The position numbers were made by a program, and so were the translations under genes. A stretch of DNA of 64,000 nucleotides, from contig OZ245046.1 of NCBI GenBank assembly GCA_965224245.1, forward strand, positions 1,152,001 to 1,216,000, given 5' to 3'. Below are positions 15,845 to 58,368 of the stretch, piece after piece (position 1 is the stretch's first letter; each line of letters begins with the position of its first letter). The stretch is from Candidatus Eiseniibacteriota bacterium. GTDB lineage: Bacteria > Eisenbacteria > RBG-16-71-46 > CAZAMP01. Below the pieces are notes generated by a model. That model was not told the DNA's origin, made no database searches, and saw only the letters and a program-made list of their open reading frames with translations.

Positions 15845-15851
15845 CTGATCC

Positions 15852-17468: not shown

Positions 17469-17520
17469 GTGGGCTCGCGCTCTCCTGAGTGACGGGACGG
17501 CGGACGTTCGAAGTGGGGTA

Positions 17521-17548: not shown

Positions 17549-17725
17549 GGACCATCCGGCGGCGCGAGGACGTGCCAGCCGTCGCCGGTGGGTAAATGGC
17601 TCACGAGCTGGAGTTGCGAGCCGGCGCGAGAGGTCGGGCGGTCGGCGCCCGGGAGCGCCGCGCGGTCGCGACGCCGCGGCCTCCCGACCCCGGACGCGCG
17701 CGAGGTACCGCGGGTGCGGCGTCAC

Positions 17726-30821: not shown

Positions 30822-30926
30822 GCTCGCTCCGGCGGGCGTCTCTGCCCGAGGCGTTCGCGCCCTCGGGATGTGCTAGAGTCGATCTCTCGATCCCTCGAAG
30901 ACCCCGCGGCTCTGCCGGAGACGCCC

Positions 30927-38359: not shown

Positions 38360-40993
38360 ATGCGGTTGCTCCACTCGGTCATCGGCATCGCCGTCCTGAC
38401 GGCGCTCTCGACGTCGTCACCGACGACGGCGCTCGCCGAGGTACGGTCGTACACGACCACCCGAACGCCGCGGCCCCCGCGCATCGACGGCGTGCTCGAC
38501 GATGCCGAGTGGAACGCGGTCCCGTGGGCCGGCGAGTTCACACAGTTCGAGCCGACCGAGGGCGCGGCGCCGAGCGCCGACACGCGGTTCAAGATCCTCT
38601 ACGACGATGCGAACCTGTACATCGCGTACCGGGCCTTCGATGCCGAGCCCGCTGAGATCGCCAGCGTTCTGAGTCGCCGCGACGAGTTCCCGGGCGACTG
38701 GGTGGAGATCAACATCGACAGCTACCACGATCACCGGACGGCGTTCTCGTTCACCGCGAGCGTATCGGGTACGCAGGGCGACGAGTTCATCTCCGAGGAC
38801 GGCGACAGCTGGGACGGCAACTGGGATCCGGTCTGGGAGCACGAGGCGCGCATCGACCGCGAGGGGTGGACGGCCGAGGTCCGTATCCCGCTCAGTCAGC
38901 TCCGCTACGGCAACCACGACGAGCACGTGTGGGGCATCCAGGTGCAGCGCCGCATCTACCGGTACGAAGAGCGCTCGGTCTGGCAGCCCATTTCCCGGGA
39001 CGAAGAGGGCTGGGTCAGCAAGTTCGGCGAGCTCCGGGGAATCCGCGGCATCCGGGCTCAGCGCCGGCTGGAGGTGCTCCCGTACACGGTCGCGCGCGCC
39101 GAGCGCGTCGAGCGAATGGACGGGAATCCCTTCGCCGACGGCAGCGAGAACCGGCTCTCGGCCGGGCTCGACGGGAAGATCGGGGTCACGAGCGACCTGA
39201 CCCTCGATCTGACGGTGAACCCCGATTTCGGTCAGGTGGAGGCCGATCCCTCGGTGGTGAACCTCACCGCCTTCGAGACGTTCTTCTCCGAGAAGCGGCC
39301 GTTCTTCATCGAGGGGGCCAACATCTTCTCGTCGCGACTGGCCCCGTCGGTGGCGTTCGGGACGCACACCCAGGACCGGATCTTCTACTCGCGACGGATC
39401 GGTCGCCCACCTCAGGCCGAGCCCCGCGTCGACGGGTTCGTCGATCAGCCGGACAACACGTCCATCCTCGGGGCGGCCAAGCTGACCGGCAAGACCACGG
39501 GCGGCTGGTCCATCGGGCTCCTGGAGAGCGTGACCGCGCGCGAGCGAGCGGACGTGGAGGAGGACGGGGAGCGCGGCCAGGTCACGGTGGAGCCCGCGAC
39601 GAACTACCTGGTAGGCCGGGTCCAGAAGGACTTCCGGCGCGGACAGACACGCATCGGTGCGATGGTGACCGGCGTCAACCGCGACGTCGGGGATCCGGAG
39701 GTCGCGTTCCTCCACTCGAGCGCCACCGTGGGAGGTGTCGACTTCTTCCACTACGTCGACGAACGACGGTACTACGTGGCCCTGAACGCGGCGGCGAGCC
39801 GTGTGCACGGGGGCGAGGACGCGATCCTCAGGACGCAGCTGGCTCCCGCACGGTACTACCAGCGCCCCGACAACCGCGGTCAGGTGGTTGACACCACGCG
39901 CACGTCGCTGGTCGGCCACGGCGGGTCGCTCCGGCTGGGGAAGTCCTCAGGCAAGCTGAACGCCGAGGTCGGCGTGGCCTGGCGCTCACCGGGGTTCGAG
40001 CTCAACGACGTCGGCTATCTCCGAAACGCAGACGAGGTCAACCAGTTCGCCTGGGCCGGCTACTCCATCCGGAACCCGGTGGGGATCCTCCGCCGCATGT
40101 CGTTCAACGTGAACCAGTGGCTGGACTTCGAGTACGGGGGCGAGAACCTCTACCAGGCCGCGAACTTCAACACGAACGCCACGTTCCTGAACAACTGGAG
40201 CACCAACGCCTCGATCACGCGCGAGAACGAGCGCATCTCCGTGCACGAGCTCCGGGGCGGACCCTCGATGCGACTGCCGGGCTCGGTCAGCGCGAACGCC
40301 GAGCTGAACACCGACTGGCGCCGGACGCTGTCGGGGGGCGTGGGGGGCAGCGTCACGCGTCTCGACGACGACGCCGGCGATTCCAACGACCTGTGGTCCT
40401 GGGTGGCGTGGCGACCGAGCAACGCGATGCGATTGGAGCTGAGCACGTCGTACGGGCGAAACCGGCCCGAGCTCCAGTACGTGACGACCGCCGACCGGGC
40501 CGGGGAGGCCGCCTACGTGTTCGCGCGTCTCGAGCAGGAGACGCTGGATCTCTCGCTGCGCTTCGACTATGCGATCACGCCCGATCTCACCGTGCAGTAC
40601 TACGGGGCGCCGTTCGTGTCCGCCGGGACGTACGACGCGTTCAAGCGCATCGTCGACCCGCGGGCCGGCGAGTACGGTGACCGCTTCGTCGAGCTCGGCG
40701 AGGTGGCGAGGGACGACGCGTCGGCCGGGGTCTACACGGTCGACGAGGACGGCGACGGAGCCGAGGACTATCGCTTCAGCCAGCCGAACTTCGACGTCCG
40801 CGACTTCAACTCGAACCTGGTCGTTCGCTGGCAGTACTCGCCCGGCTCCAGCGTCTTCCTGGTGTGGTCTCAGGCCCGATTCGGCTTCGATCGCACCGGG
40901 CGGTTCGCGGCCGCCGACGACCTCGACGCGCTCTTCGATCGCCATCCGGACGACGTCTTTCTGATCAAGATCAACCGCTGGCTGGACCTGTAG
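38360..40993 (+). CDS. CBM9-like plus DUF5916 outer-membrane protein
   Basis: Signal peptide; PPRIDGVLDDAEW, WTAEVRIPLSQLRY, DLTVNPDFGQVEAD, FETFFSEKRPFFIEG and FYSRRIG; the ORF-track extension from 36893 is an antisense shadow. Confidence 0.88.
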   Translation: MRLLHSVIGIAVLTALSTSSPTTALAEVRSYTTTRTPRPPRIDGVLDDAEWNAVPWAGEFTQFEPTEGAAPSADTRFKILYDDANLYIAYRAFDAEPAEIASVLSRRDEFPGDWVEINIDSYHDHRTAFSFTASVSGTQGDEFISEDGDSWDGNWDPVWEHEARIDREGWTAEVRIPLSQLRYGNHDEHVWGIQVQRRIYRYEERSVWQPISRDEEGWVSKFGELRGIRGIRAQRRLEVLPYTVARAERVERMDGNPFADGSENRLSAGLDGKIGVTSDLTLDLTVNPDFGQVEADPSVVNLTAFETFFSEKRPFFIEGANIFSSRLAPSVAFGTHTQDRIFYSRRIGRPPQAEPRVDGFVDQPDNTSILGAAKLTGKTTGGWSIGLLESVTARERADVEEDGERGQVTVEPATNYLVGRVQKDFRRGQTRIGAMVTGVNRDVGDPEVAFLHSSATVGGVDFFHYVDERRYYVALNAAASRVHGGEDAILRTQLAPARYYQRPDNRGQVVDTTRTSLVGHGGSLRLGKSSGKLNAEVGVAWRSPGFELNDVGYLRNADEVNQFAWAGYSIRNPVGILRRMSFNVNQWLDFEYGGENLYQAANFNTNATFLNNWSTNASITRENERISVHELRGGPSMRLPGSVSANAELNTDWRRTLSGGVGGSVTRLDDDAGDSNDLWSWVAWRPSNAMRLELSTSYGRNRPELQYVTTADRAGEAAYVFARLEQETLDLSLRFDYAITPDLTVQYYGAPFVSAGTYDAFKRIVDPRAGEYGDRFVELGEVARDDASAGVYTVDEDGDGAEDYRFSQPNFDVRDFNSNLVVRWQYSPGSSVFLVWSQARFGFDRTGRFAAADDLDALFDRHPDDVFLIKINRWLDL

Positions 40994-41306: not shown

Positions 41307-42419
41307 ATGGCAAGCGTCCCTGAGCCAAGACGGGTCCTGACGGTCTGGTTGGGCATCGGGCTCCTCCTCGGCGCGGTGGTGGTGACCAGCGCCGTCGTCG
41401 ACGTCGATCGGCGCGTCTCCGGTCGATGCCGCCTGCGTCCGCTCGCGCAGTGGACCCTGGTCGAGCTGCGTCCGGGAACGCTCGAGTCGAAGGCCATCGA
41501 CTACACCACGGGACAGACGCTTCACTACCAGCTCTACCAGTTCGAGCGCGACGCGTTCGTGGAGCTGCAGCTTCCCCAGTTCGAGTCCGAGGTCGATTCG
41601 CGCATTCACTACGACAGCGGCCGCCCGCTCGCGCACATCGAAGCCTCGTCGCTCGCCCTGATGATGGCCGAGCGACGCACCGCGTTGGAGCGGGCACGAG
41701 CGCGTCTGGCCGCCCTGGAGGCCGGAGCGAAGCCGGAGGAGCGCCGTCGGGCCGAGGTGGCCCTCGAGCAGGCGCGCGCTTCCCTGGAAGCATACCGGCC
41801 CCGGTACCAGCGCCAGCAGGGGCTGCATGCCGAGCGCCTCGTCAGCGACGACGTCTGGGAGGAGATCGAAGCCACGTATCGCCTGCGCGAGCTGGACGTC
41901 GAGCTGGCCCGGCGCGAGCTGGACGTGATCACGAGCGGCGCGCGCCCCGAGGAGATCGAGGCGGCAAGGGTGCTGGTAAACAACCTCGAGAGCGAGCTGG
42001 ATGTGCAGTCGCGGATGATGTCGGCACAGGAGGTGTCCTCGCCGGTCTCCGGCTGGCTGCGCGTCGGTGGACCCGACCAGGCGATGGTGACCGTGACCGA
42101 TCTCGATTCGATGGTCGTGGAGATCGCACTGCCCCAGCGCCACAGCGGTCGCCCGGAGCCCGGCAACCCCGTCCAGGTGTGGGTTCCCGGGCTCACGCGT
42201 GACGTGATCGACGGATGTGTCCTTCGTGTGGATCGGCGCGCGGCGTTGACGGCGCGGGGCGCGTACGTGACGGTGTGTGCCGCGATTCCGAACCCCGGGG
42301 GCATTCTCGAAGAGGGGCTGGAGGGGCGTGCCACGATCCGCTGCGGCCGGACATCGCTTCTGACGCAGTGGATGGACGACCTCTCCACGCTCGTCCGGCG
42401 CGAGCTGGCCGGGCTCTGA
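41307..42419 (+). CDS. HlyD/membrane-fusion family periplasmic adaptor
   Basis: N-terminal TM; long coiled coil with GAKPEE and GARPEEI; VSSPVSG; G..EGLEG.A.I..G. Confidence 0.75.
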   Translation: MASVPEPRRVLTVWLGIGLLLGAVVVTSAVVDVDRRVSGRCRLRPLAQWTLVELRPGTLESKAIDYTTGQTLHYQLYQFERDAFVELQLPQFESEVDSRIHYDSGRPLAHIEASSLALMMAERRTALERARARLAALEAGAKPEERRRAEVALEQARASLEAYRPRYQRQQGLHAERLVSDDVWEEIEATYRLRELDVELARRELDVITSGARPEEIEAARVLVNNLESELDVQSRMMSAQEVSSPVSGWLRVGGPDQAMVTVTDLDSMVVEIALPQRHSGRPEPGNPVQVWVPGLTRDVIDGCVLRVDRRAALTARGAYVTVCAAIPNPGGILEEGLEGRATIRCGRTSLLTQWMDDLSTLVRRELAGL

Positions 42420-42423
42420 CCGC

Positions 42424-43185
42424 GTGGATGCCCGGCGCCGGAACGGCGGAGCCTATACCCGGCACGAGCTCAAGTTCCCACTACCGGTCGCGCTCGTCGA
42501 CGAGATCCGATCGCGAGTGGAGAGCCACGTGGAGCCGGACCCCAACGCCGCCGGAGACGGCCGCGCCGTGTACACCGTGCGGAGTATCTACTTCGACACC
42601 GAGGATCTTCGCTTCTACTTCGAGAAGATCGACGGGCGCCGCACGCGCCGGAAGCTTCGCATCCGGACGTACGGCTCGAAGGCATCGGCGACGAACGCGT
42701 TCCTCGAGATCAAGCGCAAGCTGGACCGCACGTCGTTCAAGGAACGCGCCCGGGTCCCGGTGGCGGCCGTTTCGGCCATCCTGTCCTCGCGCTGGCCGGA
42801 TCCGCCGGACGCCGCCGCGCTCGACCGCGTGGGGGAGCGCGAAAGACGGGTGATCGAGAAGTTCCGGTACAACATGGACGTGTGCGAGCTCCGGCCCAGC
42901 GTGCTCGTGACCTACGATCGCGAGCCCTACGTCGCCACGCGCGGCGACATGGCGCGCGTGACATTCGACATGAACCTGCGTAGTCTCATCCGGCCCGGGC
43001 CGGACGATCTCTTCTCCGAGCGCCCGTTGCGCGAGTTTCACTCGGGGGGCTTCGTGCTGGAGCTGAAGTTCGACGAGTTCATGCCGCGCTGGATGGCCGA
43101 TCTCATGTCGGCCTTCAATCTCCGATCTCGAGCGTTCTCGAAGTACTGCCACGGCATCGACGCCTGGGAATGTCACGCCAAATGA
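42424..43185 (+). CDS. VTC (polyphosphate polymerase, CYTH/TTM-like) domain protein
   Basis: RHELKF, VRSIYFDT, KLRIRTY, FLEIKRK, YDRE, RVTFD, LELKF and FSKY. Confidence 0.9.
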   Translation: MDARRRNGGAYTRHELKFPLPVALVDEIRSRVESHVEPDPNAAGDGRAVYTVRSIYFDTEDLRFYFEKIDGRRTRRKLRIRTYGSKASATNAFLEIKRKLDRTSFKERARVPVAAVSAILSSRWPDPPDAAALDRVGERERRVIEKFRYNMDVCELRPSVLVTYDREPYVATRGDMARVTFDMNLRSLIRPGPDDLFSERPLREFHSGGFVLELKFDEFMPRWMADLMSAFNLRSRAFSKYCHGIDAWECHAK

Positions 43186-43212
43186 CCGAGACTCCGCGCC
43201 GAGACGGCAGAG

Positions 43213-43911
43213 GTGACCTCCTTGGATGACTTCCTGCAAGGTCTGGCGATCCAGCCCGAGCCGTGGACGGTTCCCCAGATCGGGGTCAACATCGGGGTCG
43301 CGTTCGTCCTGGGCGTGTTGATCTCCTGGGTCTACCGGAGTACGCACCGCCAGCTCGCGGTGTCGTTCTCGCTGATGAACACGCTCGTGCTCCTGGCCAT
43401 GATCATGTCCATGGTCATGATGGTGATCGGCAACGACATCGCTCGTGCGTTCGGTCTGGCCGGCGCCATGTCGATCATCCGCTTCCGGACCGTGGTCAAA
43501 GACACCCGCGACACGGCATTCGTGTTCTTCGCGATCGGCGCCGGGATGGCGGCGGGCACCGGCAACCTCAAGATCGCCGTCGCGGGCACGCTGCTCATCT
43601 CGATCGGCGCCGAGATCCTCCACTGGACCCGACACGGGGCCGCGGCACGACGCTCGTATCTGCTCACCTTCGACGTGGCTCCCGAGCAGGCAGAGAGCGG
43701 CGCGGAGGTGTTCCGCGGCGTGTTCGACGCGCAGCTGGCGCGGCAGTCCCTGGTGAGCGTGAAGTCGGTCCGCATGGGACAGTTCCTGTCGCTCACCTAC
43801 CAGGTGGAGCTGCAGCCGCGCGCCACTTCGGAGCGCCTGGTGGCCGAGCTCTCGGCGCTCGAAGGCGTGCACCGCGTGACGCTCTCGTTCGGGGAAGAGG
43901 CCGAGAACTAG
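43213..43911 (+). CDS. DUF4956 family membrane protein
   Basis: MMVIGNDIARAFGLAGAMSIIRFRT.VKD..D..F.F.AI..GMA.G; soluble C-terminal domain. Confidence 0.9.
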   Translation: MTSLDDFLQGLAIQPEPWTVPQIGVNIGVAFVLGVLISWVYRSTHRQLAVSFSLMNTLVLLAMIMSMVMMVIGNDIARAFGLAGAMSIIRFRTVVKDTRDTAFVFFAIGAGMAAGTGNLKIAVAGTLLISIGAEILHWTRHGAAARRSYLLTFDVAPEQAESGAEVFRGVFDAQLARQSLVSVKSVRMGQFLSLTYQVELQPRATSERLVAELSALEGVHRVTLSFGEEAEN

Positions 43912-43936
43912 CGTCGTCCAGGGTCGTGGGCGCCGG

Positions 43937-46015
43937 TCAATCCATCCGTACGATGGGCAACGTCGACGTCCGGCCGCCGCCGTCGACGCGAATCAGATAG
44001 CGACCGGCCGCCGCCGTTCGTCCGTCGTCGTCGCGCCCGTCCCAGTCGAGCGCATGCTCTCCGGACTCCAGCCTTCCCGCGAACAAGCGGCGTACCCGGC
44101 GGCCCGAGACGTCGAACACGTCGATGGCCAGGTCCGCGGGGTCGAGAAGCGAAAGCGACAGCCGCACGGAGCGAAGGCCCGGATTGGGGGCGGCATGGAG
44201 GACGAGCACCGCCGGCCCGTTCGATCCGGGGCTGATACCCAGCGGCTCGGGATTCGGGCCGCCGGGCGTGGGGGTGGTGAGCGCGGTCCAGCTGGCGACC
44301 CCGTTGGGCACGCGGCCCTCGCTCACGTCGGGCTCTTGTGGTCCATAGTCGTAGTAGTCCTGGACGGTCGTGCTGTCGGCGCCGGTGAGCATGACGACCT
44401 CCGATCCGCTCGACGAGAGGCTGAACCCGAGCGCCGTCTCGAACACCACGAGATACTCGTTCTCGCCGATCGTGGTACCCGCAGGGAAGCGGTACTTCAT
44501 CGGCTCGTCGGCATCGTCGGTGAGTCCCCACGCGCCGATGCCGACGGCGCTGTCTCCGCGGTTGTAGATCTCGATCCAGTCGTCCACGCCACCGATCGCA
44601 CTGGTCGTGAGCAGCTCGTTGAGGCACACCGCCGAGAAGAGCTGCGAGGTGTCGTTCGGCGTCCCCGGGGTCGGCGAGAGCAGATACTCCGGCGCGGTGG
44701 CGTCTCCCTCGGGGAAGTAGCCGAACGAGACGTCTTCTTGCTGTGGACCGAAGGACATCGCGTCCACCACGGTGTTGCCGTACGTCGCGGCGTCGAACAG
44801 GAAGAGTGACTCGCCCCCGGCGGATAGCCGAAACGTCGTGTGGCGCGGGCCATCTGCGGGGTCGCCGTCCGCCCAGAACATCACACGCTCACCGGGCGCG
44901 AGCGGGGTCGATGGAACGGCCCACATCTGCGTCTCGCCTGCGTCGTCGGACAGGTACATCCCGCCGAGGTCGACGCTGACCGCGTCGACGTTGAGGATCT
45001 CGATCCAGTCGTCGTAGTCGCCGGCCTCGTCCGAGGCCGTGGTGGCGTTGTCGGCCACGATCTCGTTGATTCGAACGCGCGGCGGCGTGTAGCCGACGAC
45101 ATAGCCCAGCACCGTTGTGGGCGCCCCCGCCGGGACGTTCGTGCGCCGACCGCCGCCGTCGACCGCGCTGACGAAGTACCGGACCGCGGTCCCCGTCGCG
45201 CGGGGGGCGATGACGGCCGTGTACACCGAATCGCCGGCCACGGCGTCGCCGAGCATGCCGTCGTCGCGCATCGCGGTCGGTGAGTAGCCGCCACCGTCGG
45301 AGACGAAGACGGCCGTGCTCACCACGACGTCGTCGTCCACGATGCGCGCCGCGATCGTCACGACGTCCGAGTCGATCGGCAGCCCGGGAACTCGGGTGAG
45401 GTCGGAGATCACGGGCGGGCGTGCGACGAGCACCGTGTTCGGGGCTCCGGGCGTGCCCGCGGGGTAGCCGTTGAGGCTGACCCCCCAGGAGGAGGCGAGC
45501 CCGTTGTCCGAGGCGGGATCGATCAGCTCCAGCGACGGGCCATCTCCGTCGGCCTCGGGCGGCCAGGGCGGGTCGTCGTCGTATGCGACGTCGTCGACCA
45601 TCGTCGAGCCGTCGTCGAAGAGCCGCACCGCGTCGCCGCCGTTGCCGAGTCCGAAGTCGAGGTTTCCGACCACCGGCACCGCCCCGCCGTACCTGGCGCG
45701 CATGCCGATCGTATCGGCCGAGACCACGAGGAAGCTCCCGGGCGCCAGGGCGACACCGCCAGGGATCGTGAACACGTGGGCGTCGTCGTCGTCCCGGAGC
45801 GACCATCCCGCGAGATCGATCGTGCTGGTTCCCGCGTTGAAGAGCTCCACGTACTCGGTGTCCACGTCGGCGCTGTTGTACATGATCTCGTTGATCACGA
45901 TGTCGCCGGGAGCGGAAGGAGCGGGGGCGTCGCTCCCCGGCGCCGCGGGCGCCGCGATGCGGACTGCGGCGCACAGGGACGCGATCGAGATGAGGGAGAC
46001 GACTCGGCGGTGCAT
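43937..46015 (-). CDS. Secreted protein with three lamin-tail domains, a DDG..GD..AGD (choice-of-anchor X-like) module and FlgD-like CTD
   Basis: IVINEIMYN, VRINEIVADN and VCLNELL repeats with D/E-W/Y-I/V-E..N and TPG.PN; GAGGAG SD; TGgTATGCT at 46059-46067. Confidence 0.85.
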   Translation of the reverse strand: MHRRVVSLISIASLCAAVRIAAPAAPGSDAPAPSAPGDIVINEIMYNSADVDTEYVELFNAGTSTIDLAGWSLRDDDDAHVFTIPGGVALAPGSFLVVSADTIGMRARYGGAVPVVGNLDFGLGNGGDAVRLFDDGSTMVDDVAYDDDPPWPPEADGDGPSLELIDPASDNGLASSWGVSLNGYPAGTPGAPNTVLVARPPVISDLTRVPGLPIDSDVVTIAARIVDDDVVVSTAVFVSDGGGYSPTAMRDDGMLGDAVAGDSVYTAVIAPRATGTAVRYFVSAVDGGGRRTNVPAGAPTTVLGYVVGYTPPRVRINEIVADNATTASDEAGDYDDWIEILNVDAVSVDLGGMYLSDDAGETQMWAVPSTPLAPGERVMFWADGDPADGPRHTTFRLSAGGESLFLFDAATYGNTVVDAMSFGPQQEDVSFGYFPEGDATAPEYLLSPTPGTPNDTSQLFSAVCLNELLTTSAIGGVDDWIEIYNRGDSAVGIGAWGLTDDADEPMKYRFPAGTTIGENEYLVVFETALGFSLSSSGSEVVMLTGADSTTVQDYYDYGPQEPDVSEGRVPNGVASWTALTTPTPGGPNPEPLGISPGSNGPAVLVLHAAPNPGLRSVRLSLSLLDPADLAIDVFDVSGRRVRRLFAGRLESGEHALDWDGRDDDGRTAAAGRYLIRVDGGGRTSTLPIVRMD

Positions 46016-46386
46016 GAGTCTCCTCGGAAGCGTGCGACACGCCAGTGGATCGAGATCAAGCATACCACGACCGTCTGCGTGTCCCGGCGGGCCACGGTGA
46101 CCGCCGGCCGCGCCGGCTGCGCACCGGGTGCGCTGCGGAGCTGCCGCATCGATGGCGTGCCGCCGGGGCGCCTCCCATCTCATCGAGCGGCACGTTTCCG
46201 ACCACCACGTCCACGGACCGGGCATCCGACCGGCACGTCGATGGTGATTGCGCGAGTGCCCGGCGAGCAGGTCGGACCGTGGTGCCGTGAGGAGATCCCT
46301 GCTAGAATCCTGCCATTCGCCACTCGCCCGGTACCGGGGACGACCCGTGCCGTCGTCGACGTCCAGTGGCAGGAACGGGGGCGGGA

Positions 46387-49300
46387 ATGACCGGTCTTCG
46401 GTCCTTGCTGATCGGTGCCACGCTTGTCTTCGCCTGCGCAGCGCACGGCTACGAGCAGCGCTTCAACTGCGGTGGGCCGGCTTACACCGCCGTGTCCGGC
46501 GACCTGTTCGCCGCCGACCAGCCCTACTCGGCCGGCGGCGCCGGCTACGTGTGGAGCGCGTTCGCCGACGACACCTGGGAGCCCATCCGCGGCACCCCGG
46601 ACGACTTTCTCTACGAGACCGTCCGGATGGGCAGCTACCGGTTCGACGTACCGAACGGCTGGTACCTGCTCACGGTTCACGTTTGCGACTTCTGGAGCCA
46701 CGGCCCACGCCAGAACCAGTACGACGTGCTGGCAGATGGTACCCAGGTGATCGCCGATCTCGACATCTATGCCGAGGTCGGCAAGGACCACCCGATGGTG
46801 TTCCGGTTCGCCGTCGAGATCACCGACGGCGCGCTGGACGTCGACACGCACGTCGACCGTCGCCACGCCTACCTCAACGCGCTCGAGGTCGAGTCGATCG
46901 TCCCCGACTCCGATGCTCCCGCGATTCCGGTCGGCCTGGTCGGGTACGACGGCTACAACCGGACCTCGCTTCGCTGGGATCCGAACACCGAGTCCGATCT
47001 GGCGGGCTACCGCGTGTACCGGAAGACCGAGCCCGCGGGGTCGTGGGTGCTCCTGACGGCGACGCCGCGCGTGGCCACGTGGTACCACGACGACACGGCC
47101 GTGGTCGGCACGTCCTACCGCTACCGGATCCGCGCGATCGACGTCTTCGGCAACCAGAGCGCCGACTCGCCGGACACGCCGGCGTCGCCCCGATCGATCG
47201 CCACGTCGACGCGTCCGGTGTACGAGATCTTCATGGATCTCGCCGATCTCGACGTGCTCAACACCGACGAGGCCACGCAGGGCGACGAGTACTTCCCGGC
47301 CACGTTCGTGGCGGGCGGCCAGGTGTTCCAGAACGTCGGCGTCCGGTACCGCGGAAACATCACGCGGACGCTTCCCAAGAAGTCCTGGAAGGTCCGGTTC
47401 AACGACGACGAGCTCTTCACCGCGACGGACCGGCTCAACCTGATCGCCGAGTACCCGGACATGTCGTTCATGCGCGAGTATCTCGCGTACGAGATGCTCC
47501 GCGAGAGCGGTCTCCCGTCGTCCACCAGCCGGATGATCAACCTGATGCTGAACGGCGAGTACATGGGCGTCTTCAACGACGTCCAGCAGGTCGACGAGAT
47601 ATACCTGCTCGAGAACGGCTTCACCGTGGGCGGCGACCTCTACAAGTGCGAGTCCGACTTCTCGGTGCTCCCCGACACGACCGCCTACGAGGCGGCGTAC
47701 GAGAACGAGACGAACCCCGGCGAGGGATACGGCGACCTGATCGACCTGATCCTCCGCGTGAACGAGACCCCGACCGACGTTCTCTGGCAGGCGCTGGCGC
47801 CTGATCTGGACATTCAGAACGCGGTCATGTGGTACAGCATCAACGTGTTCCTGGCGAACATGGACTTCCGATACAAGAACTACTACGTCTACCACGACGA
47901 GTCCGCCGATCGCTGGTCGTTCATCCCGTGGGACGTCGACTTCACCTTCGGCAAGGTCGCCATCTTCGATCAGAGCTACTACTCCGCGTCGTCGCTCTTT
48001 CTCGGAAGCGCCCACAAGTGGGCCTCGCGCATCCAGTCCACGCCGGCGCTGCGACGACTGCACCTCGAGAACATGACCTGGCTCGCGAACGACATACTCA
48101 CACCGGCGGTGTGGGTGCCCCGGATCCAGGCACTGCACGCCGATCTCACCGGGGACGTGACCATCGACTGGAGCAAGTTCGCGGTGACCGACCTCGCGGC
48201 GTTCGAGGCCGGGGAGCTCGGGATCGAGACCTTCCTCACGGATCGGGGACAGTTCGTCAGGGACAGCGCACCCGCGGTGGTCACGGACGACGGCCTGGTG
48301 ATCAACGAGTTCATGGCCCGGAACGCGACCACGGTTTTCGACGAGGCCGGAGAGCCCGAGGACTGGATCGAGATCTACAACGGATCGCCCGGCGCCAAGG
48401 ATCTCACCGGGATGTACCTGACCGACGATCCGGAGAACACCACCAAGTGGCCCATCCCACCGCTGGTGCTGGAGCCGGGGGGCTACGCGCTCTTCTGGGC
48501 CGACGACAGCGTGGCCGCCGGGCCGATGCACACGAACTTCCGGCTCGACGGCGACGGCGAGTTCGTGGGACTGTTCGAGTCGCTGGCGGCCGCGAACGTC
48601 CCACTCGACGTGCAGTACTTCGGCCCACAGCTCGTCGACGTCTCGCGTGGACGGTACGGCGAAGGCGAGCTGTACTGGACCGCGTTCGGCAATCCCTCTC
48701 CCGGGGGCGCGGCGAACGGTCCACCCAACGATCCGCCGGTCATCTCGGGGACGACACACACGCCCGCGTTTCCGGGCGCGATGGATCCCATCGACGTGTC
48801 GGCCTCGATTCAGGACCCGGACGGGATCGTGGAGGCGCTCGTCGTGTTCTCCGACGGTGCCGTGGTCGACTCGCTGGCGATGGCGGACGACGGAGCGAGC
48901 GGCGATGGCGAAGCCGGGGACGGGGTGTTCGGGGCCACGATTCCCGCGCAGCCCGACGGCACGACGCTCGACTACTTCATCCACGCACGGGATGGGGCGG
49001 GTGTGTCGGCCACCGATCCGATCGGCGCACCGGGCGAGACGTACGTCGTCGCCGTGGGCTACGCGCCACCGCCGTTGACCGTGAACGAGTTCATGGCCGA
49101 CAACACGGCCAGCTACGCGGACGAGTCCGGGGACTTCGACGACTGGGTCGAGATCCACAACGGCGGCACGACTCCGGTTCAGCTGGGCGACATGACGCTC
49201 ACCGACGATCTCCTCGTGCCCACGAAGTGGGCGTTTCCGGACACGATCCTGGCCCCCGGCGGTTTTCTCGTCGTCTTCTGCGACAACGAGCCGGGAGAGG

Positions 49301-50595
49301 GGCCGCTCCACGCGACCTTCCGGCTCGGGGCCGACGGCGAGGAGATCGGGCTATTCGAGCGCGTCGCGCTGGGAGGCGGACAGCTCGATGCGATCACGTT
49401 CGGCGCGCAGCGTCCCGACATCTCGTACGGACGCTACCCCGATGGCGGTGCCGCGCTGCAGTTCTTCGGGATTCCCACGCCGGGCGCGCCGAACGAGCCC
49501 GGCAACGCACCCCCGAACATCACCGACGTGGCCATCTCTCCGGATCCACCGGCGGCTGACTCCCCGGTCGTGGTCACGGCGGAGATCGTGGACGATGCGT
49601 CGGTCGCGGAAGCACACCTGCTCTACGACGCGACGGGGGCCGAGGAGTTCGTGCCGGTTCGGATGTGGGACGACGGCCTCCACGGGGATGGCGTCGGTGG
49701 CGATCGGGTGTACGGCGCGTCCATTCCCGGGTATCCCGATGGCACCGTGGTGCGGTTCTACCTGGAGGCCGAGGACGGAGAGGGGCTGGTCACCGCCGAC
49801 CCACCCGCGGGCGCGGAGGCCCCCTACGGATACCAGATCGGATACGTGTCACCGGCGCTCGCCGTCAACGAGATCATGGCCCTCAACACGACCACGATCG
49901 CCGACGAGATGGGGGAGTTCGACGACTGGGTCGAGATCCTGAACGACGGTCCGGACGCGGTCGATCTGGGGGGGCTGTACCTCTCCGACGATCTCGAGGC
50001 GCCGACGGCGTGGGCGTTGCCGGAGACGACGCTGGCCCCGGGCGGGTTCCTGCTCGTGTGGTGCGATGCGACGCCCGAGCAGGGTCCCCTCCACGCGTCC
50101 TTCCGACTGTCCGCCGACGGCGAGGAGATCGGGCTCTTCGAGTCGGAGAGTCAGTTCTTCGCACTGATCGACGGGTTCTCGTTCGCGGCGCAGATGCCGG
50201 ATACCTCCTACGGGCGGTTCCCCGACGGGTCTGGCGCGCTGCGCTACATGCCCATCCCGACTCCGGGCGCTCCGAACGAGCTGATCGGTGCTCCGGAGTC
50301 GCCGGGCATGCCGGGTGCGTTCACGATGCACGCGGCCTCACCCAATCCCTTCCGGAGCCGGGTGGCCCTGTCGTTCGATCTGCCCGAGGAGCGGGCCGAG
50401 GTTCGTCTCATGATCTACGACGTCGCGGGACGCCGGGTTCGCACGCTCGTCTCCGAGCCTCGGCGGCCGGGTCGCCATCTCGTCGTGTGGAACGGTCGCA
50501 CCGAGGACGGGCTCTCGTGCCGGCCCGGCGTGTACTTCGTGCGCCTGACCGCCGGCGCGGACCGTGCCTTGCGAAAGCTCATCAAGCTCGAGTAG
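46387..50595 (+). CDS. Secreted malectin-FN3-CotH kinase protein with three lamin-tail domains, two DDG modules and FlgD-like CTD
   Basis: RFNCGG...LYETVR (malectin); GYRVYR (FN3); GVRYRGN...KKSWKV, MREYLAY, NGEYMGVF, KNYY and IPWDVDFTFG (CotH); PNPF...YDVAGRRV; TGcTAGAAT at 46300-46308. Confidence 0.9.
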   Translation: MTGLRSLLIGATLVFACAAHGYEQRFNCGGPAYTAVSGDLFAADQPYSAGGAGYVWSAFADDTWEPIRGTPDDFLYETVRMGSYRFDVPNGWYLLTVHVCDFWSHGPRQNQYDVLADGTQVIADLDIYAEVGKDHPMVFRFAVEITDGALDVDTHVDRRHAYLNALEVESIVPDSDAPAIPVGLVGYDGYNRTSLRWDPNTESDLAGYRVYRKTEPAGSWVLLTATPRVATWYHDDTAVVGTSYRYRIRAIDVFGNQSADSPDTPASPRSIATSTRPVYEIFMDLADLDVLNTDEATQGDEYFPATFVAGGQVFQNVGVRYRGNITRTLPKKSWKVRFNDDELFTATDRLNLIAEYPDMSFMREYLAYEMLRESGLPSSTSRMINLMLNGEYMGVFNDVQQVDEIYLLENGFTVGGDLYKCESDFSVLPDTTAYEAAYENETNPGEGYGDLIDLILRVNETPTDVLWQALAPDLDIQNAVMWYSINVFLANMDFRYKNYYVYHDESADRWSFIPWDVDFTFGKVAIFDQSYYSASSLFLGSAHKWASRIQSTPALRRLHLENMTWLANDILTPAVWVPRIQALHADLTGDVTIDWSKFAVTDLAAFEAGELGIETFLTDRGQFVRDSAPAVVTDDGLVINEFMARNATTVFDEAGEPEDWIEIYNGSPGAKDLTGMYLTDDPENTTKWPIPPLVLEPGGYALFWADDSVAAGPMHTNFRLDGDGEFVGLFESLAAANVPLDVQYFGPQLVDVSRGRYGEGELYWTAFGNPSPGGAANGPPNDPPVISGTTHTPAFPGAMDPIDVSASIQDPDGIVEALVVFSDGAVVDSLAMADDGASGDGEAGDGVFGATIPAQPDGTTLDYFIHARDGAGVSATDPIGAPGETYVVAVGYAPPPLTVNEFMADNTASYADESGDFDDWVEIHNGGTTPVQLGDMTLTDDLLVPTKWAFPDTILAPGGFLVVFCDNEPGEGPLHATFRLGADGEEIGLFERVALGGGQLDAITFGAQRPDISYGRYPDGGAALQFFGIPTPGAPNEPGNAPPNITDVAISPDPPAADSPVVVTAEIVDDASVAEAHLLYDATGAEEFVPVRMWDDGLHGDGVGGDRVYGASIPGYPDGTVVRFYLEAEDGEGLVTADPPAGAEAPYGYQIGYVSPALAVNEIMALNTTTIADEMGEFDDWVEILNDGPDAVDLGGLYLSDDLEAPTAWALPETTLAPGGFLLVWCDATPEQGPLHASFRLSADGEEIGLFESESQFFALIDGFSFAAQMPDTSYGRFPDGSGALRYMPIPTPGAPNELIGAPESPGMPGAFTMHAASPNPFRSRVALSFDLPEERAEVRLMIYDVAGRRVRTLVSEPRRPGRHLVVWNGRTEDGLSCRPGVYFVRLTAGADRALRKLIKLE

Positions 50596-50688: not shown

Positions 50689-51726
50689 TCACCGGACGAG
50701 CGAGATCCGCCGTGTCACGACGGCACCCGGCCGATCGAGCCGTTCCACGCGAACGAAGTAGCAGCCGGAGGGGGCCCGGTCCCCGGGCGCCCAGGCGAGA
50801 ACGTGCCGGCCCGGCGCCACCGCTCCCGACGCGAGCTCGGCCACCCGGCGTCCGGCGGCATCGAAGACGTCCGCGCGGACCGCGAGAGCCTGCTCGGCAT
50901 CGAGGGCCACCCGAACGTCCGCACGCGCCGGATTGGGGCCGACCGAGAGCACGCGAAGTCCTTTCGGTGCCGCGTCGGCGAAGCCGACACCGACGGTCCC
51001 CCGGAAGTCGTCGTACAGCTCCTGCAGGAGATCGATCGGGTTCTGACTGGACGTCGTGCTGTTGACGTTGAGATCCATCCAGAGGTCGGATACCGCATCC
51101 CCGGGCTTCGCCACGCGGATGAACGCGGAGATCGCCGGCTTCGACGTGCAGCGGGTGTCGGCGCCCGGCACGTTCGCGGCCTGAAGCGCGGCCATCAGCT
51201 TGTCGGCGAGATCGCCCGGCGTCGTCTGGAACGCGGTGGCCATGTCGTCGAGGATCACCTGGCCCAGGAGGATGTTGCCGGCCACGACGAACGTGGGGAA
51301 CAGGTCGTGCCCCTTGTAGTCGTAGCAGTTCTCCCCGGTGAACCCCGCGGTGCGGCCACCATCCACGAGGTCGACGATTCCGTACTGCCGGACGGTCGGA
51401 TCGCCCTGAGCGTCGTTGACCACGAGCGAATCGATGATGTCCTCGGGAGCGAAGCCGGCGTCCATCAGGGCGCGTGCGTAGGCCTGATTGGTACCGTTCC
51501 AGAACGACTGGGTGTGGATCACACCCAGATCCGGGTGCACGTCGCTGAGGATGATCGACCCCGAGATGCAGGATGCCCCGGCGCTGCCGACCTCTCCGGT
51601 CGCGGGATCCACCGCCGCGATCGAGAACGTGGCGTGCGCCGATGGGGCCCATGTCGCCAGAGCCGCGGCGAGGAGAAGCGGCTCGAGGCGTGACGGGCGC
51701 GAGAGCGATGGATGCAGGCGAAACAT
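50689..51726 (-). CDS. DUF1028 (Ntn-hydrolase-like) protein with FlgD-like CTD
   Basis: AHA/TFSIAAVDPATGEVG.AGAS, RQYGIVD, GNIL and LADKLMAAL; CTD GPNP...FDAAGRRV. Confidence 0.85.
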   Translation of the reverse strand: MFRLHPSLSRPSRLEPLLLAAALATWAPSAHATFSIAAVDPATGEVGSAGASCISGSIILSDVHPDLGVIHTQSFWNGTNQAYARALMDAGFAPEDIIDSLVVNDAQGDPTVRQYGIVDLVDGGRTAGFTGENCYDYKGHDLFPTFVVAGNILLGQVILDDMATAFQTTPGDLADKLMAALQAANVPGADTRCTSKPAISAFIRVAKPGDAVSDLWMDLNVNSTTSSQNPIDLLQELYDDFRGTVGVGFADAAPKGLRVLSVGPNPARADVRVALDAEQALAVRADVFDAAGRRVAELASGAVAPGRHVLAWAPGDRAPSGCYFVRVERLDRPGAVVTRRISLVR

Positions 51727-52045
51727 GGCGGACTCCAGTCGGCCCCGGCGGGCCGTGCTCGAAACGGCGAGGGCGCGAGGCTCGACTATACCGCATTCCT
51801 CCGGCCTCCGATCACCAGAAGGCGGCGGAGACACCGGGCGAGCCCGCGTGCATGGATCTCCACCGGACGCCCCGGACGAGACCACGAGCGGACGGACCTG
51901 GGAGTGGCAACACGCCGGCTCCCTCGCGAGCCGCATCCGCGGGACCGCCGCCGCCCACCGCGTTCCCGAGAAGCCCCGGTGACTGATACACTCGTGGGCC
52001 TGGATGGGTGGTTCTAACGTCCTTGCGTCACACGAGGAGGGAATC

Positions 52046-52894
52046 GTGTTTGCATCCGCAGCTCGCGCAGCGGTGGTGACCGCGATGGGAATTGCGGTGG
52101 CCGGCCCCGGGGTCGCCATGCCCACGTCGATCACCGACACGACGGCGGGTACCGCCACAAACGACGGCACGATCGGCGGCGGTGAGTACGTGGGCTCGTC
52201 GCTGGGCATCAACTCCGGCTTCGGGAACGTGATCGGAGATCTCTCCGAGCTGTTCATCGATTCCGACACCGGCGGTGCGGTCAACCTCGGCCTGCGCACC
52301 GGTGGCGGCGGTCTGTTCGACGCCGTCGTCATCTATCTCGACGTCACACCCGGCGGGTTCGGCGACACGACCCCGTTCGACGACATTGCCGACGGCCTGC
52401 GCCGCGCAATCTCCGCGACAGACGGTACGAACCGCTCGGACATCACGTTCGCGCCGGGTTTCGAGGCCGACTACGCGATCGGAATCGAGCAGAACTTCGC
52501 GGGTGTCTGGAGCCTCGTCGGGGGAGGGAGCCACACGTTCCTGACCTCGGCCAACCTGACCCCGACCGGGAACCCGAGCGCCGGCGAGTTCGAGATCGAC
52601 TTCGACCTGTCGACCATCGGCCTGTCACCCGGCGACTCGTTCGACTACGTCGTGACGTACTTGAACTCCGGCAACGCGTTCCGGTCCGACGAGTTCCACG
52701 GCGTGGCCTCGTCGACGGTCCCGCCGGGTAACCCGGGCCAGAACCCGACGACGCTGGCGTCGGGCGACTTCAACACGTTCACGTCCGTCGCACCGTCGGA
52801 CGGTGTCCGCGCACCGGCAATGGCGCCGGTGACCGTGCTCCTGGTCACGGGGGCGATGGGGCTGGCCGCGCGCCGGCGCCTCCGCCGCCGCTAG
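52046..52894 (+). CDS. Secreted protein with a PEP-CTERM/IPTL-CTERM-like sorting tail
   Basis: GAGGAGG SD; signal peptide; C-terminus APAMAPVTVLLVTGAMGLAARRRLRRR (Pro motif, TM, Arg cluster). Confidence 0.7.
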   Translation: MFASAARAAVVTAMGIAVAGPGVAMPTSITDTTAGTATNDGTIGGGEYVGSSLGINSGFGNVIGDLSELFIDSDTGGAVNLGLRTGGGGLFDAVVIYLDVTPGGFGDTTPFDDIADGLRRAISATDGTNRSDITFAPGFEADYAIGIEQNFAGVWSLVGGGSHTFLTSANLTPTGNPSAGEFEIDFDLSTIGLSPGDSFDYVVTYLNSGNAFRSDEFHGVASSTVPPGNPGQNPTTLASGDFNTFTSVAPSDGVRAPAMAPVTVLLVTGAMGLAARRRLRRR

Positions 52895-53074: not shown

Positions 53075-54988
53075 CTAGCGGGACACGACGAACTTGCCCG
53101 ATGCGATCGACGTGCCGTTCGCCGTGATCTTGTACACGTAGACCCCCGGCGTCACCGCGACGTCTCCATCGGTCCGTCCGTTCCATCCGATGATGCCCGA
53201 GCCGCCGCCCGCGTTCACGCGGCTGTGGTGGACGAGCCGGCCCGACGGCTCGAAGACCGACATCTCGAGCGTCGCCGCCTCATCCAGCGAGTACGGCACG
53301 GTGAACAGGGCTCGGCTCGGATTGGGATACGGCGCACCGAGGGTGATGTCCGGCGCCCCGCCGGCGGTCGGCGTCGAGAGCGCGCCCCGCTCGTAGGTGA
53401 CGACCTGATCCGCCGCGACGTCCGAGTGGGACTCGACGAACCCGTCCGCCCAGTGGATCTCGAGCGTCGTGACGAGGGTCTCGGCACCGAGGCCGAAATG
53501 CACCTCGGACGGCGTGCCGACCAGGTAGCTGTCACCGTGAACGATGTCACGCCGTTTCGTGACCCCACCGATCGTGGCATACACGCGGGCGCCGACGGCC
53601 TTGGCGTCGGGCTTCAGGCGTACCTCGAGCCAGTGCCCCTGGTTTAGCGTGATGTTCTCGTACAGACGGACGGTATCGTCGATGTTCGTGGTCAAGATGT
53701 CGAGATCCCCGTCCCGGTCGAAGTCGAACGTCACGAGTCCGCGGCCGTCGTCTTTCTGCTGGAGTCCCGTGAAGAGTGCACGGGTGAAGTTGCCGCTGCC
53801 GTCGTTCACGAGTAGCACCGTCGGCGTGTCGTAGATGGGGGAGAACTCGTCCTCCAGTGCGAGGATCATGTCCTCCATGCCGGTGGCCGCGACGAGATCC
53901 ACGTCGCCGTCGTTCTCGGCGTCGAACCACTCAACACCCCAGCCCCAGTACGTGTCGTGCACGCCGTGGGCGAGGGCCTCGTCCTCGAACCAGACCGTTC
54001 CGCCCATCTCGGCCGTCTTGTTGACGTACAGGCAGTTGTACTGCGTGCTCCCGAACGCACCGGAAGGATCCGTGATGTTCGTGGTGTAGATGTCGAGGTC
54101 GCCGTCATCGTCGAAGTCGCACGCGGTGGCGCCCATGTCGTTCCCGAAGTGGTCGAGCTGGACGTCGTCGGTTCCGATGACGAAGGTGCCGGCTTCGTTC
54201 CACCAGTAGACGTCGTCTCGGTTGTCGATGGCCTGGTAGAGGTCGAAGTCTCCATCGTCGTCGAAGTCGGAGAAGATCGCCGAGAAGCAGTCGCGTGTGT
54301 ACTCGCCGAATCCCGCCGCCACCGAGACGTCCTGGAAGATCATCCCGCCCTGGTTCTCGTGAAGGGTGTTGTATCCCGGGAACGCGGGAGGACCGAAGAG
54401 CCCGTAGAGAATCCACACGGTGGCGTAGATGTCGAGCTGACCATCGAGGTTGTAATCGGTGATCGCGGTGCCGCAGTGGAGGTACCCCACCGGCGCGAAT
54501 CCCGATCCGGTGGTGACGTCGTTGAAGACGCCGTCGTCGTTCCGGTAGATCACACTCGTGGCCGTGCCACCGCCCTCGCCGAACGAATCGTTCACGAGCA
54601 GGAGATCGAGGTCGTCGTCGTCGTCTAGATCGACGAAGTGGGCCGAGCGAGACATGTCGGTGTTCGCGAGCGCCGGCGTGGTCACGTCCACGAAGGTCTT
54701 GGTCCCGAGGTCGAGCTCGTTTCGATAGAGCTTGTTCGCGGAACCGAGCTGCCCGCAGAAATAGATGTCGAGGTCGCCGTCGTCGTCGTAGTCGCCGACG
54801 GCCGCGCCGTTGCCCATGGTCTGGACCATCAGCTCCTTGAGACCGCTCTCGCCCGGGATGTCGGCCGGTACGACGTTCGTGAACGAGATTCCGGCGCTCG
54901 GGGTGATGTCCGTGAACAGCGGTGCGGCAGTCAGCCCGCCGGCCGCGCAGACCGACAGGACGGTGACCGTTGATGCGATGCGTCTCAT
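53075..54988 (-). CDS. CRTAC1/ASPIC-UnbV family FG-GAP protein with FlgD-like CTD
   Basis: FTDIT..AG, repeated D.D.DGDLD, YWGWG, LYEN, AVGARV and VHFGLG...IHW..G; CTD YPNP. Confidence 0.88.
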   Translation of the reverse strand: MRRIASTVTVLSVCAAGGLTAAPLFTDITPSAGISFTNVVPADIPGESGLKELMVQTMGNGAAVGDYDDDGDLDIYFCGQLGSANKLYRNELDLGTKTFVDVTTPALANTDMSRSAHFVDLDDDDDLDLLLVNDSFGEGGGTATSVIYRNDDGVFNDVTTGSGFAPVGYLHCGTAITDYNLDGQLDIYATVWILYGLFGPPAFPGYNTLHENQGGMIFQDVSVAAGFGEYTRDCFSAIFSDFDDDGDFDLYQAIDNRDDVYWWNEAGTFVIGTDDVQLDHFGNDMGATACDFDDDGDLDIYTTNITDPSGAFGSTQYNCLYVNKTAEMGGTVWFEDEALAHGVHDTYWGWGVEWFDAENDGDVDLVAATGMEDMILALEDEFSPIYDTPTVLLVNDGSGNFTRALFTGLQQKDDGRGLVTFDFDRDGDLDILTTNIDDTVRLYENITLNQGHWLEVRLKPDAKAVGARVYATIGGVTKRRDIVHGDSYLVGTPSEVHFGLGAETLVTTLEIHWADGFVESHSDVAADQVVTYERGALSTPTAGGAPDITLGAPYPNPSRALFTVPYSLDEAATLEMSVFEPSGRLVHHSRVNAGGGSGIIGWNGRTDGDVAVTPGVYVYKITANGTSIASGKFVVSR

Positions 54989-57221: not shown

Positions 57222-57695
57222 TCAGCGTCCGTCGTTCCGCGGCTCGTCGAGCGCGTCGGGCACGGACGCCTTCGGGGCCAGCTCCGTGCCCAGTCCGACC
57301 CCCGGAAACCCGACGTTCCGCAGGATGTCGAGCACCTGCACGATCTCACCGTGACGAACACCCGCCTCGGCCTCGAGCATCACGGGGCGATCGGGCGCGG
57401 CGGCGTGTGCGGCGCGCAGCCGGGACTCCAGCTCGGATGCGTCGATGGCCAGGCCGTCCAGCGCGTAGCCGCCGGCCTCGGTCACGACCAGCTCGAGCTG
57501 TCCGCCGGACCCGCCCGGATCCGCGGCGGTGGCGGTCTCCGAGGACGGCAGGCGAAGCTCGAGCTCGCCGAAACGCTTGAAGGTGCCGGTCAGCATGAAG
57601 AAGATGATCAGGAGGAACAGCACGTCGATCAGCGGGGTCACGCTCAGATGGACGGCCTCGCGTCCGCGCCTGGCCCTGAACTCCATCGCGCTCAT
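57222..57695 (-). CDS. exbD: ExbD/TolR family biopolymer transport protein
   Basis: VTPLIDVLFLLIIFFML; ATGA overlap with exbB. Confidence 0.88.
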   Translation of the reverse strand: MSAMEFRARRGREAVHLSVTPLIDVLFLLIIFFMLTGTFKRFGELELRLPSSETATAADPGGSGGQLELVVTEAGGYALDGLAIDASELESRLRAAHAAAPDRPVMLEAEAGVRHGEIVQVLDILRNVGFPGVGLGTELAPKASVPDALDEPRNDGR

Positions 57696-58324: not shown

Positions 58325-58368
58325 CGAAGATCGCTCCTCGTTGAGTGCGCCCGCGCGGTCGCGGTGGG

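Follow-up and report, generated by a model that had tools for sequence, protein, structure and literature searches.

A conserved adaptor–VTC–DUF4956 cassette beside a secreted CotH kinase: a candidate supply route for phosphoryl donors outside the cell

For a kinase that works outside the cell, no source of phosphoryl groups is obvious, and secreted CotH kinases are common: they occur in 80 of 201 genomes in one sample analyzed here and 30 of 151 in another, as well as in cellulosomes and at pel loci. How might such enzymes be supplied? We address this question at a locus of a Candidatus Eiseniibacteriota bacterium (GenBank assembly GCA_965224245.1, contig OZ245046.1, positions 1,152,001 to 1,216,000; the whole 64,000-nucleotide stretch that was analyzed is called the window), where genes for a periplasmic adaptor, a VTC protein, and a DUF4956 membrane protein lie beside a gene for a predicted secreted CotH kinase. 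This cassette is a conserved, unexplained system; it probably works as a hybrid of the VTC complex and tripartite pumps, a member of neither, and it offers a concrete, testable supply route. Its features, in window coordinates, are as follows (aa, amino acids; TM, transmembrane; LTD, lamin-tail domain; T9SS, type IX secretion system; ORF, open reading frame).

41307..42419, plus strand: periplasmic adaptor (membrane-fusion protein), 370 aa from ATG 41307, with a TM helix at residues 13-31, a long α-hairpin, and a barrel domain
41811..41846, plus strand: RLS motif (R169-x3-L173-x6-S180) at the tip of the adaptor hairpin, the TolC-binding motif of MacA/AcrA/MexA
42424..43185, plus strand: stand-alone VTC (Vtc4-type triphosphate tunnel) protein, 253 aa, without a TM helix; PF09359, E 3.5e-42
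43213..43911, plus strand: DUF4956 inner-membrane protein, 232 aa; PF16316, E 2.6e-16
43937..46015, minus strand: secreted lamin-tail protein, ~692 aa, with three LTDs, a choice-of-anchor X domain, and a FlgD/T9SS-like C-terminal domain; ORF open to 46225
46387..50595, plus strand: predicted secreted CotH kinase, ~1402 aa; ORF open from GTG 46366; PF08757, E 9e-52

A preliminary description of this locus had proposed a tight operon, and the ORF coordinates bear this out, with exact gaps of 4 nucleotides (nt) between the adaptor and VTC genes and 27 nt between VTC and DUF4956; no promoter or terminator consensus was detected at the locus. It had also placed a secreted lamin-tail protein and a CotH protein of about 1400 aa beside the operon. 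Both are present, but the lamin-tail gene lies on the minus strand between operon and cotH, convergent with the former across a 25-nt gap and divergent from the latter across ~370 nt, so that cotH is not co-transcribed with adaptor-VTC-DUF4956 and was rejected as an operon member. At a related locus, L012, the lamin-tail homologue is likewise divergent from cotH (L labels denote loci or regions and G labels genomes, G000 being the genome under study). The adaptor was said to lack an ABC or RND partner, and indeed the window ORFs and a domain scan revealed no ABC, RND, or MFS gene adjoining the operon; an RND-sized pump operon, which includes an OEP gene, comes no nearer than ~24 kb upstream. 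A minus-strand unit at 11655-17555, encoding proteins of 1029, 423, and 567 aa, the last an OEP, fits an ordinary RND pump and is a possible in-trans TolC donor. The genome (6.9 Mb, 69% GC) carries adaptor, VTC, and DUF4956 in single copy and two CotH genes (tblastn), the second being a malectin-CotH-LTD gene unlinked to the operon and ~845 kb away (L019:7798-11286; G000:C1 ~2,042,800-2,046,300). It also encodes a SprA homologue, ~9 TolC-family (OEP) proteins, PPK1, and PPK2, and tblastn found no close porin or second-type adaptor homologue in it. The whole stretch is covered without differences by one short-read contig, which may derive from the DNA's own source sample.

The association extends well beyond this genome. 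GTDB yielded 553 confirmed DUF4956 loci, of which the best 80, many of them cut off at contig ends, were surveyed. VTC lay within 1.5 kb of DUF4956 at 71 of the 80 loci and CotH within 10 kb at 52, across many phyla. Two genome samples were drawn: 151 genomes from the phylum of the studied bacterium and 201, many of them close kin, from the phylum of genome G158. The own-phylum sample contained VTC in 25 genomes, CotH in 30, and this type of DUF4956 in 24, with DUF4956 and CotH together in 21 and VTC and CotH together in 16. In the G158 phylum, CotH was present in 61 of 62 genomes with the VTC/DUF4956 module versus 19 of 139 without it; all 34 VTC genomes had CotH, 19 genomes had CotH alone, and 120 had neither module nor CotH. 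The co-occurrence of VTC, DUF4956, and CotH claimed at the outset is therefore strong (61 of 62 module genomes; 21 of 24 own-phylum DUF4956 genomes). Among 14 control genomes, the three families were found in the same three, and B. subtilis had CotH only. Tractable organisms that carry all three families are B. thetaiotaomicron, C. glutamicum, and M. acetivorans. The CotH of B. subtilis acts inside the mother cell.

The adaptor belongs to this association. It lies within 2.5 kb of DUF4956 at 31 of the 80 loci, 26 times upstream in the gene order seen here and 5 times downstream as a second type. Of the 18 own-phylum genomes in which VTC matched strongly, 15 have the adaptor gene immediately before VTC (one further locus is truncated and two lack an adaptor). 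The conserved HlyD-type linkage that had been anticipated thus holds, and we rejected the adaptor as a local accident. The adaptor-VTC-DUF4956 linkage is far beyond chance, with Fisher P values that are overstated since kin are not independent. Family matches are to HlyD_3 (E 4e-4, just under the curated cut-off), PRK03598 (E 9e-14), and RND_mfp (E 5.5e-10), and PF25881 was matched on adaptor relatives. The RLS motif, by which MacA, AcrA, and MexA bind TolC (defined in PMC3391258), is invariant in six of six close homologues; across aligned adaptors, in which one locus is counted twice, R is kept in 27/27, L in 23/27, and S or T in 21/27. No ABC, RND, or MFS pump was found among the scanned co-directional neighbours of adaptor loci. 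An OEP gene lies inside the cassette at L087, L207, L161-L163, and L188 and is missing from the studied locus itself; at L188, an ABC-2 permease comes next after the OEP. A metagenome scan with the adaptor alignment yielded no confirmed locus.

Other outer-membrane partners can replace the adaptor. An OprO/P-family porin is encoded within 4.5 kb of DUF4956 at 5 of the 80 loci, and also at L016-L018 and L139; adaptor and porin occur together at 0 of the 80 and at none of these further loci. The porin stands in the adaptor's place beside VTC-DUF4956 at L016-L018, L025, L031, L033, L074, L083, and L139, and L018, whose genome has no CotH match, has tandem VTC-porin repeats. OprO is described as a pyrophosphate/polyphosphate porin (PMC11129675). 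In 5 of the 12 regions L191-L202 (L191, L193, L198, L200, and L202), a second DUF4956 subtype, from Bacteroidota, has DUF2490 as its partner. We take DUF2490 to be a barrel protein, to which a weak PorP/SprF match corresponds. A FastTree phylogeny of 109 DUF4956 proteins, of modest support and made with no clade test, places porins on several branches and adaptors on two. It had been expected that adaptors would occur only in diderms. For monoderms, the evidence consists of Chloroflexota loci and published pel-locus papers: neither adaptor nor porin was found at 4 of 4 Chloroflexota loci, all with CotH directly upstream, or in 12 further Chloroflexota regions. That half of the expectation stands, but adaptors are not universal in diderms, where a porin, DUF2490, or nothing may occur instead. 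Many loci from Verrucomicrobiota, Acidobacteriota, Gemmatimonadota, and most Planctomycetota have no conduit, and the idea of an obligatory adaptor in diderms was rejected. At such conduit-less loci, CotH carries either an N-terminal anchor or just a signal peptide. In diderm loci without an adaptor, none of the unannotated neighbours matched a porin profile, but a conduit may have gone undetected there.

The VTC protein retains the anatomy of a polymerase. A profile of 108 homologues, some of those with names coming from Ca. Eisenbacteria, matches yeast Vtc4 (3g3q, E 4.6e-26) and Vtc2/3 more weakly, with no match to a CYTH hydrolase at E≤1. Residues R79, R81, K97, E213, and K240 align to Vtc4 R264, R266, K281, E426, and K458; R79, R81, and E213 are invariant in 108/108 homologues and K240 is conserved in at least 90%, so the tunnel motifs are intact, as the preliminary description had stated. 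The R264/R266/E426 triple was used to inactivate Vtc4 (PMC9911596), K458 is its catalytic lysine (PMC4641920), and four of its basic residues are replaced by glutamates in hydrolases of the triphosphate tunnel metalloenzyme (TTM) group (PMC4641920). At these acidic-patch positions, the protein has three basic residues (R13, R108, and K215) and one acidic (E15, in 104/108), positions mapped to AtTTM3 through the Vtc4 alignment and an ExExK motif; the four-glutamate patch (second metal site) of CYTH/TTM triphosphatases is thus not reproduced. Since only PF09359 matched and no hydrophobic segment was found, the SPX domain and C-terminal TM helices of a Vtc4-type subunit are absent. Judged from these residues, VTC is likely, but not certainly, a polyphosphate (polyP) polymerase rather than a hydrolase.

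DUF4956 is less easily placed. Its membrane nature is borne out by the PF16316 match and by a model with five long helices (residues 20-139) followed by a C-terminal ACT domain (AF2 predicted local distance difference test score 91.5). The ACT fold matches the MgtC C-terminal domain 2lqj (Z 9.2, root-mean-square deviation 2.9, 90 residues aligned), tied with other ACT-fold matches; profile matches to MgtC/SapB are weak (PF02308, E 0.0013; PRK09977, E 1e-7), and an ESM Atlas search gave MgtC leads below 0.9 only. The motif R90-F91-R92, at least 90% conserved, is predicted to face the cytoplasm by positive-inside reasoning. The yeast VTC channel is described as built of three-helix units with basic TM1 residues, and the supposed likeness of VTC-DUF4956 to this channel found no support: DUF4956 is MgtC-like, no Vtc1/Vtc4 channel matched its TM domain among the matches listed (the best, Z 7.6, is unrelated, and none exceeds Z 8), and Foldseek returned nothing for that domain at E≤0.001. 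Any resemblance would be one of functional analogy. A VTC-DUF4956 complex prediction scored 0.00, which counts neither for nor against contact.

The CotH protein consists of a signal peptide, malectin, FN3-like, and CotH domains, three LTDs, and a FlgD/T9SS-type C-terminal domain. Its kinase domain aligns with B. cereus CotH 5jd9 (E 7e-23 over 350 residues) and keeps the catalytic and metal-binding aspartates (D500, D523) together with the adenine-stacking aromatics Y426 and W522; in CotH, adenine is reportedly sandwiched by Tyr142 and Trp245 (10.1101/469122; the numbering is second-hand, with an inferred one-residue offset). Aromatics are kept at these two sites in 52/64 and 59/64 CotH domains from surveyed loci. 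These kinases still look like nucleotide users, as far as pocket residues can indicate, and we rejected loss of the nucleotide pocket in favour of polyP. The earlier suggestion that CotH uses polyP directly as phosphodonor is accordingly unsupported. Ten of the 64 aligned domains have His at the catalytic Asp column. A CotH type with an N-terminal anchor and a C-terminal β-helix occurs at L014, L031, L032, L052, L056, L059, L068, L070, L074, L080, L083, L091, and L096.

VTC is dispensable, a point that is new in this analysis: DUF4956 and CotH, often with the adaptor and TolC, persist without it in several lineages. VTC-less genomes make up 27 of the 49 strong-DUF4956 genomes in the G158 sample, and there are five in the own phylum and four in Poribacteria and Blastocatellia; these absences were scored in incomplete metagenome-assembled genomes and are not proof. 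A repeat search with our own VTC profile came back blank in four VTC-less genomes, with G000 as positive control. CotH is detected at E≤1e-10 in 26 of the 27, and in the remaining one a divergent CotH lies beside DUF4956. The loci read for 13 of them each have DUF4956 and then an adaptor-like gene, usually followed by a gene of 404-416 aa whose likeness to TolC comes solely from an Atlas lead (0.98 to a cluster in which 11% of members have OEP). The five own-phylum genomes have DUF4956 and CotH, and in four DUF4956 faces an adaptor and a Pfam OEP; DUF4956 adjoins cotH in three of the other four genomes (three Poribacteria, one Blastocatellia). DUF4956 and CotH form VTC-less operons at L057, L062, L063, and L180. 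VTC-less groups occupy three separate branches of the DUF4956 tree, and that from Bacteroidota is nested among VTC-plus-adaptor cassettes (support 0.87), which suggests VTC loss. PPK1 or PPK2 is kept in the VTC-less genomes checked, so polyP is still a possible cargo there. The earlier claim that VTC and DUF4956 make and export polyP is hence sustained insofar as VTC is polymerase-like but weakened by its dispensability, and VTC-less variants provide a natural experiment on cargo. As further observations, DUF4956, adaptor, and TolC-like genes occur without VTC, with CotH in the genome, at L141-L148, L167-L170, L179, L180, and L203-L205 (Bacteroidota group), and cassettes of this type occur in the bacterium's own class at L161-L163 and L188, where a DUF3616-like propeller or unannotated gene precedes DUF4956.

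Part of this gene set has been published. A group of cotH, polyphosphate-polymerase (PPP, i.e., VTC), and DUF4956 genes is reported at Gram-positive pel loci, without an assigned function (10.1101/768473). A study of S. intermedius models the three proteins and suggests that polyP stays cytoplasmic (PMC12345266). Its passages on distribution state that the triad was not found outside pel loci, and those on mutants report that deletion of DUF4956 or CotH lost >50% of aggregation in sputum medium, with no such change given for the VTC mutant (PMC12345266). C. perfringens NELoc-2 includes VTC and CotH genes (PMC2879425), C. thermocellum cellulosomes, in which CotH is present, have an LTD-Fn3-CotH architecture (PMC6083626), and the relevant parts of PMC10657179 and PMC12526157 treat VTC as eukaryotic. 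We found no published description of an adaptor-linked cassette or of an export function, although the supplementary figures of the pel paper, which may include adaptor-bearing loci, were not covered. The preliminary description, which held the system to be undescribed, agrees with the literature found as regards the adaptor-linked cassette but not the triad, which pel-locus work had already reported as an accessory cluster without explanation. The cassette is a variant of this published, functionless triad.

From the observed gene anatomy, motifs, and co-occurrence, we infer the oligomer, physical contacts, direction, cargo, and substrate of a possible mechanism, to which we give about an even chance: DUF4956, the adaptor, and an in-trans TolC would carry a phosphoanhydride donor outward, to CotH kinases at the surface. 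That donor would probably be polyP in the presence of VTC and, in its absence, ATP or polyP made by PPK. DUF4956 would oligomerize in the inner membrane and, with the adaptor and a TolC-family channel engaged through the RLS motif, would form a pump-less duct across the envelope, through which a high-energy phosphate donor would reach CotH kinases secreted past the outer membrane. At the cytoplasmic end of this duct, VTC would act as an optional polymerase whose translation is coupled, here probably producing polyP and feeding it in, and in VTC-less relatives the cargo would have to be ATP or PPK-made polyP. Because the nucleotide pocket is kept, CotH most likely uses ATP, which might be exported directly or regenerated from ADP and polyP; it would phosphorylate surface proteins or glycans, with the malectin and LTD domains giving targeting. 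A broader proposal, which we advance tentatively and regard as possible but doubtful, is that DUF4956 is the inner-membrane channel of an undescribed tripartite class, a dedicated phosphoryl-donor (ATP and/or polyP) duct powering CotH kinases that are truly extracellular, in many bacteria and in some archaea. Where the kinase lies beyond the outer membrane, this duct would connect to a TolC adaptor, a phosphate porin, or DUF2490, and VTC would be a bolt-on generator.

The distribution of CotH tails fits the need for a conduit when the kinase lies outside the outer membrane: a conduit is encoded (9 adaptor, 2 porin) at each of the 11 loci that could be scored and whose CotH has a T9SS/FlgD tail, compared with 7 of 39 other diderm CotH loci, in a tally made by hand from which L069 was dropped as truncated and in which a few other CotH C-termini are incomplete. 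Phylum is a confounder of this pattern and related genomes are not independent, which is the first of several points against donor export to surface kinases. The membrane span of DUF4956 has few basic residues. At the studied locus, cotH is an operon neighbour outside the transcription unit, and 7 of 17 adaptor loci with wide flanks have no CotH nearby. Among genomes with CotH, 9 of 30 from the own phylum and 19 of 80 from the G158 sample lack the module; G001, a genome of the same family that is 97% complete, has 12 CotH genes and no match to VTC, DUF4956, or PPK2. Other such findings are best considered with the alternative that each favours.

The cassette may instead export polyP as a surface polyanion (for matrix, cation binding, mineralization, or chaperoning), with CotH a co-traveller rather than the consumer. 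In favour of this unlikely account, the module is found without CotH in 9 of 25 own-phylum VTC genomes, including VTC-DUF4956-porin types in CotH-less genomes, while at L154, L157, and L189 Cthe_2159 stands in place of CotH beside the module. The kept adenine pocket of CotH fits as well, and PPK1 and PPK2 elsewhere in the genome mean that VTC is not needed for cytosolic polyP. Left unexplained, however, are the VTC-less DUF4956-CotH operons and the CotH co-occurrence in 61 of 62 module genomes.

Also improbable, in our judgment, is that DUF4956 is an MgtC-like sensor or regulator whose ACT domain detects phosphate or energy status and which controls VTC, with the adaptor as a tether to the outer membrane and no transport involved. 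Its MgtC homology and ACT domain argue for this, as does the statement in the S. intermedius preprint that MgtC, its relative, is a regulator (of ATP synthase and PhoR) and not a channel; moreover, the DUF4956 and CotH mutants of that species shifted Pel levels in opposite directions (PMC12345266). A regulator would nonetheless not account for the repeated recruitment of three different outer-membrane conduits, the intact RLS motif, or the TolC genes found within operons, most loci having no other pump.

We rate lower still, as quite improbable, an inward system in which external polyP or phosphate enters through a porin or duct and DUF4956, to be captured or cleaved by VTC. OprO and OprP are known as uptake porins, and the phytase-like propellers and porins near the module fit phosphorus uptake equally well: phytase-like/SdiA propeller genes occur at 6 of the 80 loci, and a metallophosphoesterase gene, a CYTH gene, and solute-binding protein genes occur nearby. 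The one retained acidic-patch glutamate of hydrolases, E15, points the same way. By contrast, adaptor-TolC assemblies are exporters, three of the four acidic-patch positions are basic as in Vtc4 with the catalytic lysine kept, and an external kinase consumes phosphoryl groups and does not release them. Export of some other product by the adaptor and DUF4956 (a peptide, a glycan precursor, or a nucleotide derivative from a VTC enzyme of other specificity) is very improbable: TTM enzymes with near-identical tunnels catalyze different reactions (PMC4641920) and glycoside hydrolase and polysaccharide genes are common neighbours at surveyed loci, but the nearest solved relative is Vtc4, no other TTM matched, and the neighbours share a phosphate theme.

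Genes flanking the cassette encode DUF5916/CBM9, FG-GAP, amylase, and DUF1028 proteins; no pel genes are among them, the rest of the genome not having been searched for pel. A CBM9-like plus DUF5916 protein (~38370-40993, plus strand) ends 313 nt before the operon, in the same orientation, and is not among the recurrent neighbours elsewhere. FlgD/T9SS-like tails occur on unrelated secreted proteins at 30870-33587, 34974-37691, 50689-52332, and 53075-54988; the tail on CotH and the lamin-tail protein is therefore common in this genome. A secreted-looking protein with no Pfam match (52004-52894, plus strand) ends in a hydrophobic helix and a basic tail, a C-terminus that we take to resemble a sortase-type sorting signal, and a three-gene ExbB/ExbD/TonB-like set (57222-59331, minus strand) was judged by eye from translations. 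At surveyed loci elsewhere, an SdiA-regulated/phytase-like β-propeller gene directly follows DUF4956 at L029, L073, L081, L087, L124, L126, L128, and L133. A DUF4956/MgtC-like gene is followed by two genes in Chloroflexota (L158-L160), which at L158 encode thymidylate-kinase-like and HD/Ppx-GppA proteins, another phosphate-metabolism pairing.

Should export of a phosphoryl donor to surface CotH kinases prove correct, DUF4956 and bacterial VTC proteins would gain functions, tripartite systems would acquire a new class of inner-membrane component, and there would be consequences for understanding how polyP or ATP is released from bacteria. Such export would also mean that bacteria carry out regulated extracellular phosphorylation of proteins or glycans with its own energy supply line.

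Comparison with known systems places the cassette between several of them. It shares with the pel accessory triad the cotH, VTC, and DUF4956 families, a secreted CotH, and an MgtC-like TM plus ACT protein; unlike the Gram-positive triad, it belongs to a diderm, has an RLS-bearing adaptor, and has no contiguous pelDEADAFG, and whereas the authors of that work could not find the triad outside pel loci, 52 of 80 surveyed loci have CotH within 10 kb. With the eukaryotic VTC complex (Vtc1/Vtc3/Vtc4; 3g3q, 7ytj, 8i6v), it has in common a Vtc4-type catalytic tunnel and the proposed coupling of synthesis to membrane passage, but here the enzyme lacks SPX and TM segments, the membrane partner is MgtC-like, a periplasmic adaptor is present, and relatives dispense with the enzyme. 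Tripartite efflux and type I secretion systems (MacAB-TolC, EmrAB-TolC, HlyBD-TolC) likewise use an anchored adaptor with a hairpin and RLS motif, and TolC is encoded in cis in relatives of the cassette; a 232-aa MgtC-like protein here takes the place of the ABC, RND, or MFS pump. The kinase resembles Bacillus CotH (5jd9) and cellulosomal CotH (CseP, Cthe_0239) in its fold, catalytic aspartates, and adenine-stacking aromatics and differs in its malectin and LTD domains and in predicted surface secretion through a T9SS-like tail. Finally, MgtC/SapB proteins share the TM bundle, the ACT domain, and weak profile matches with DUF4956, which is set apart by its R90-F91-R92 motif and by its partners, VTC, the adaptor, and CotH rather than MgtB.

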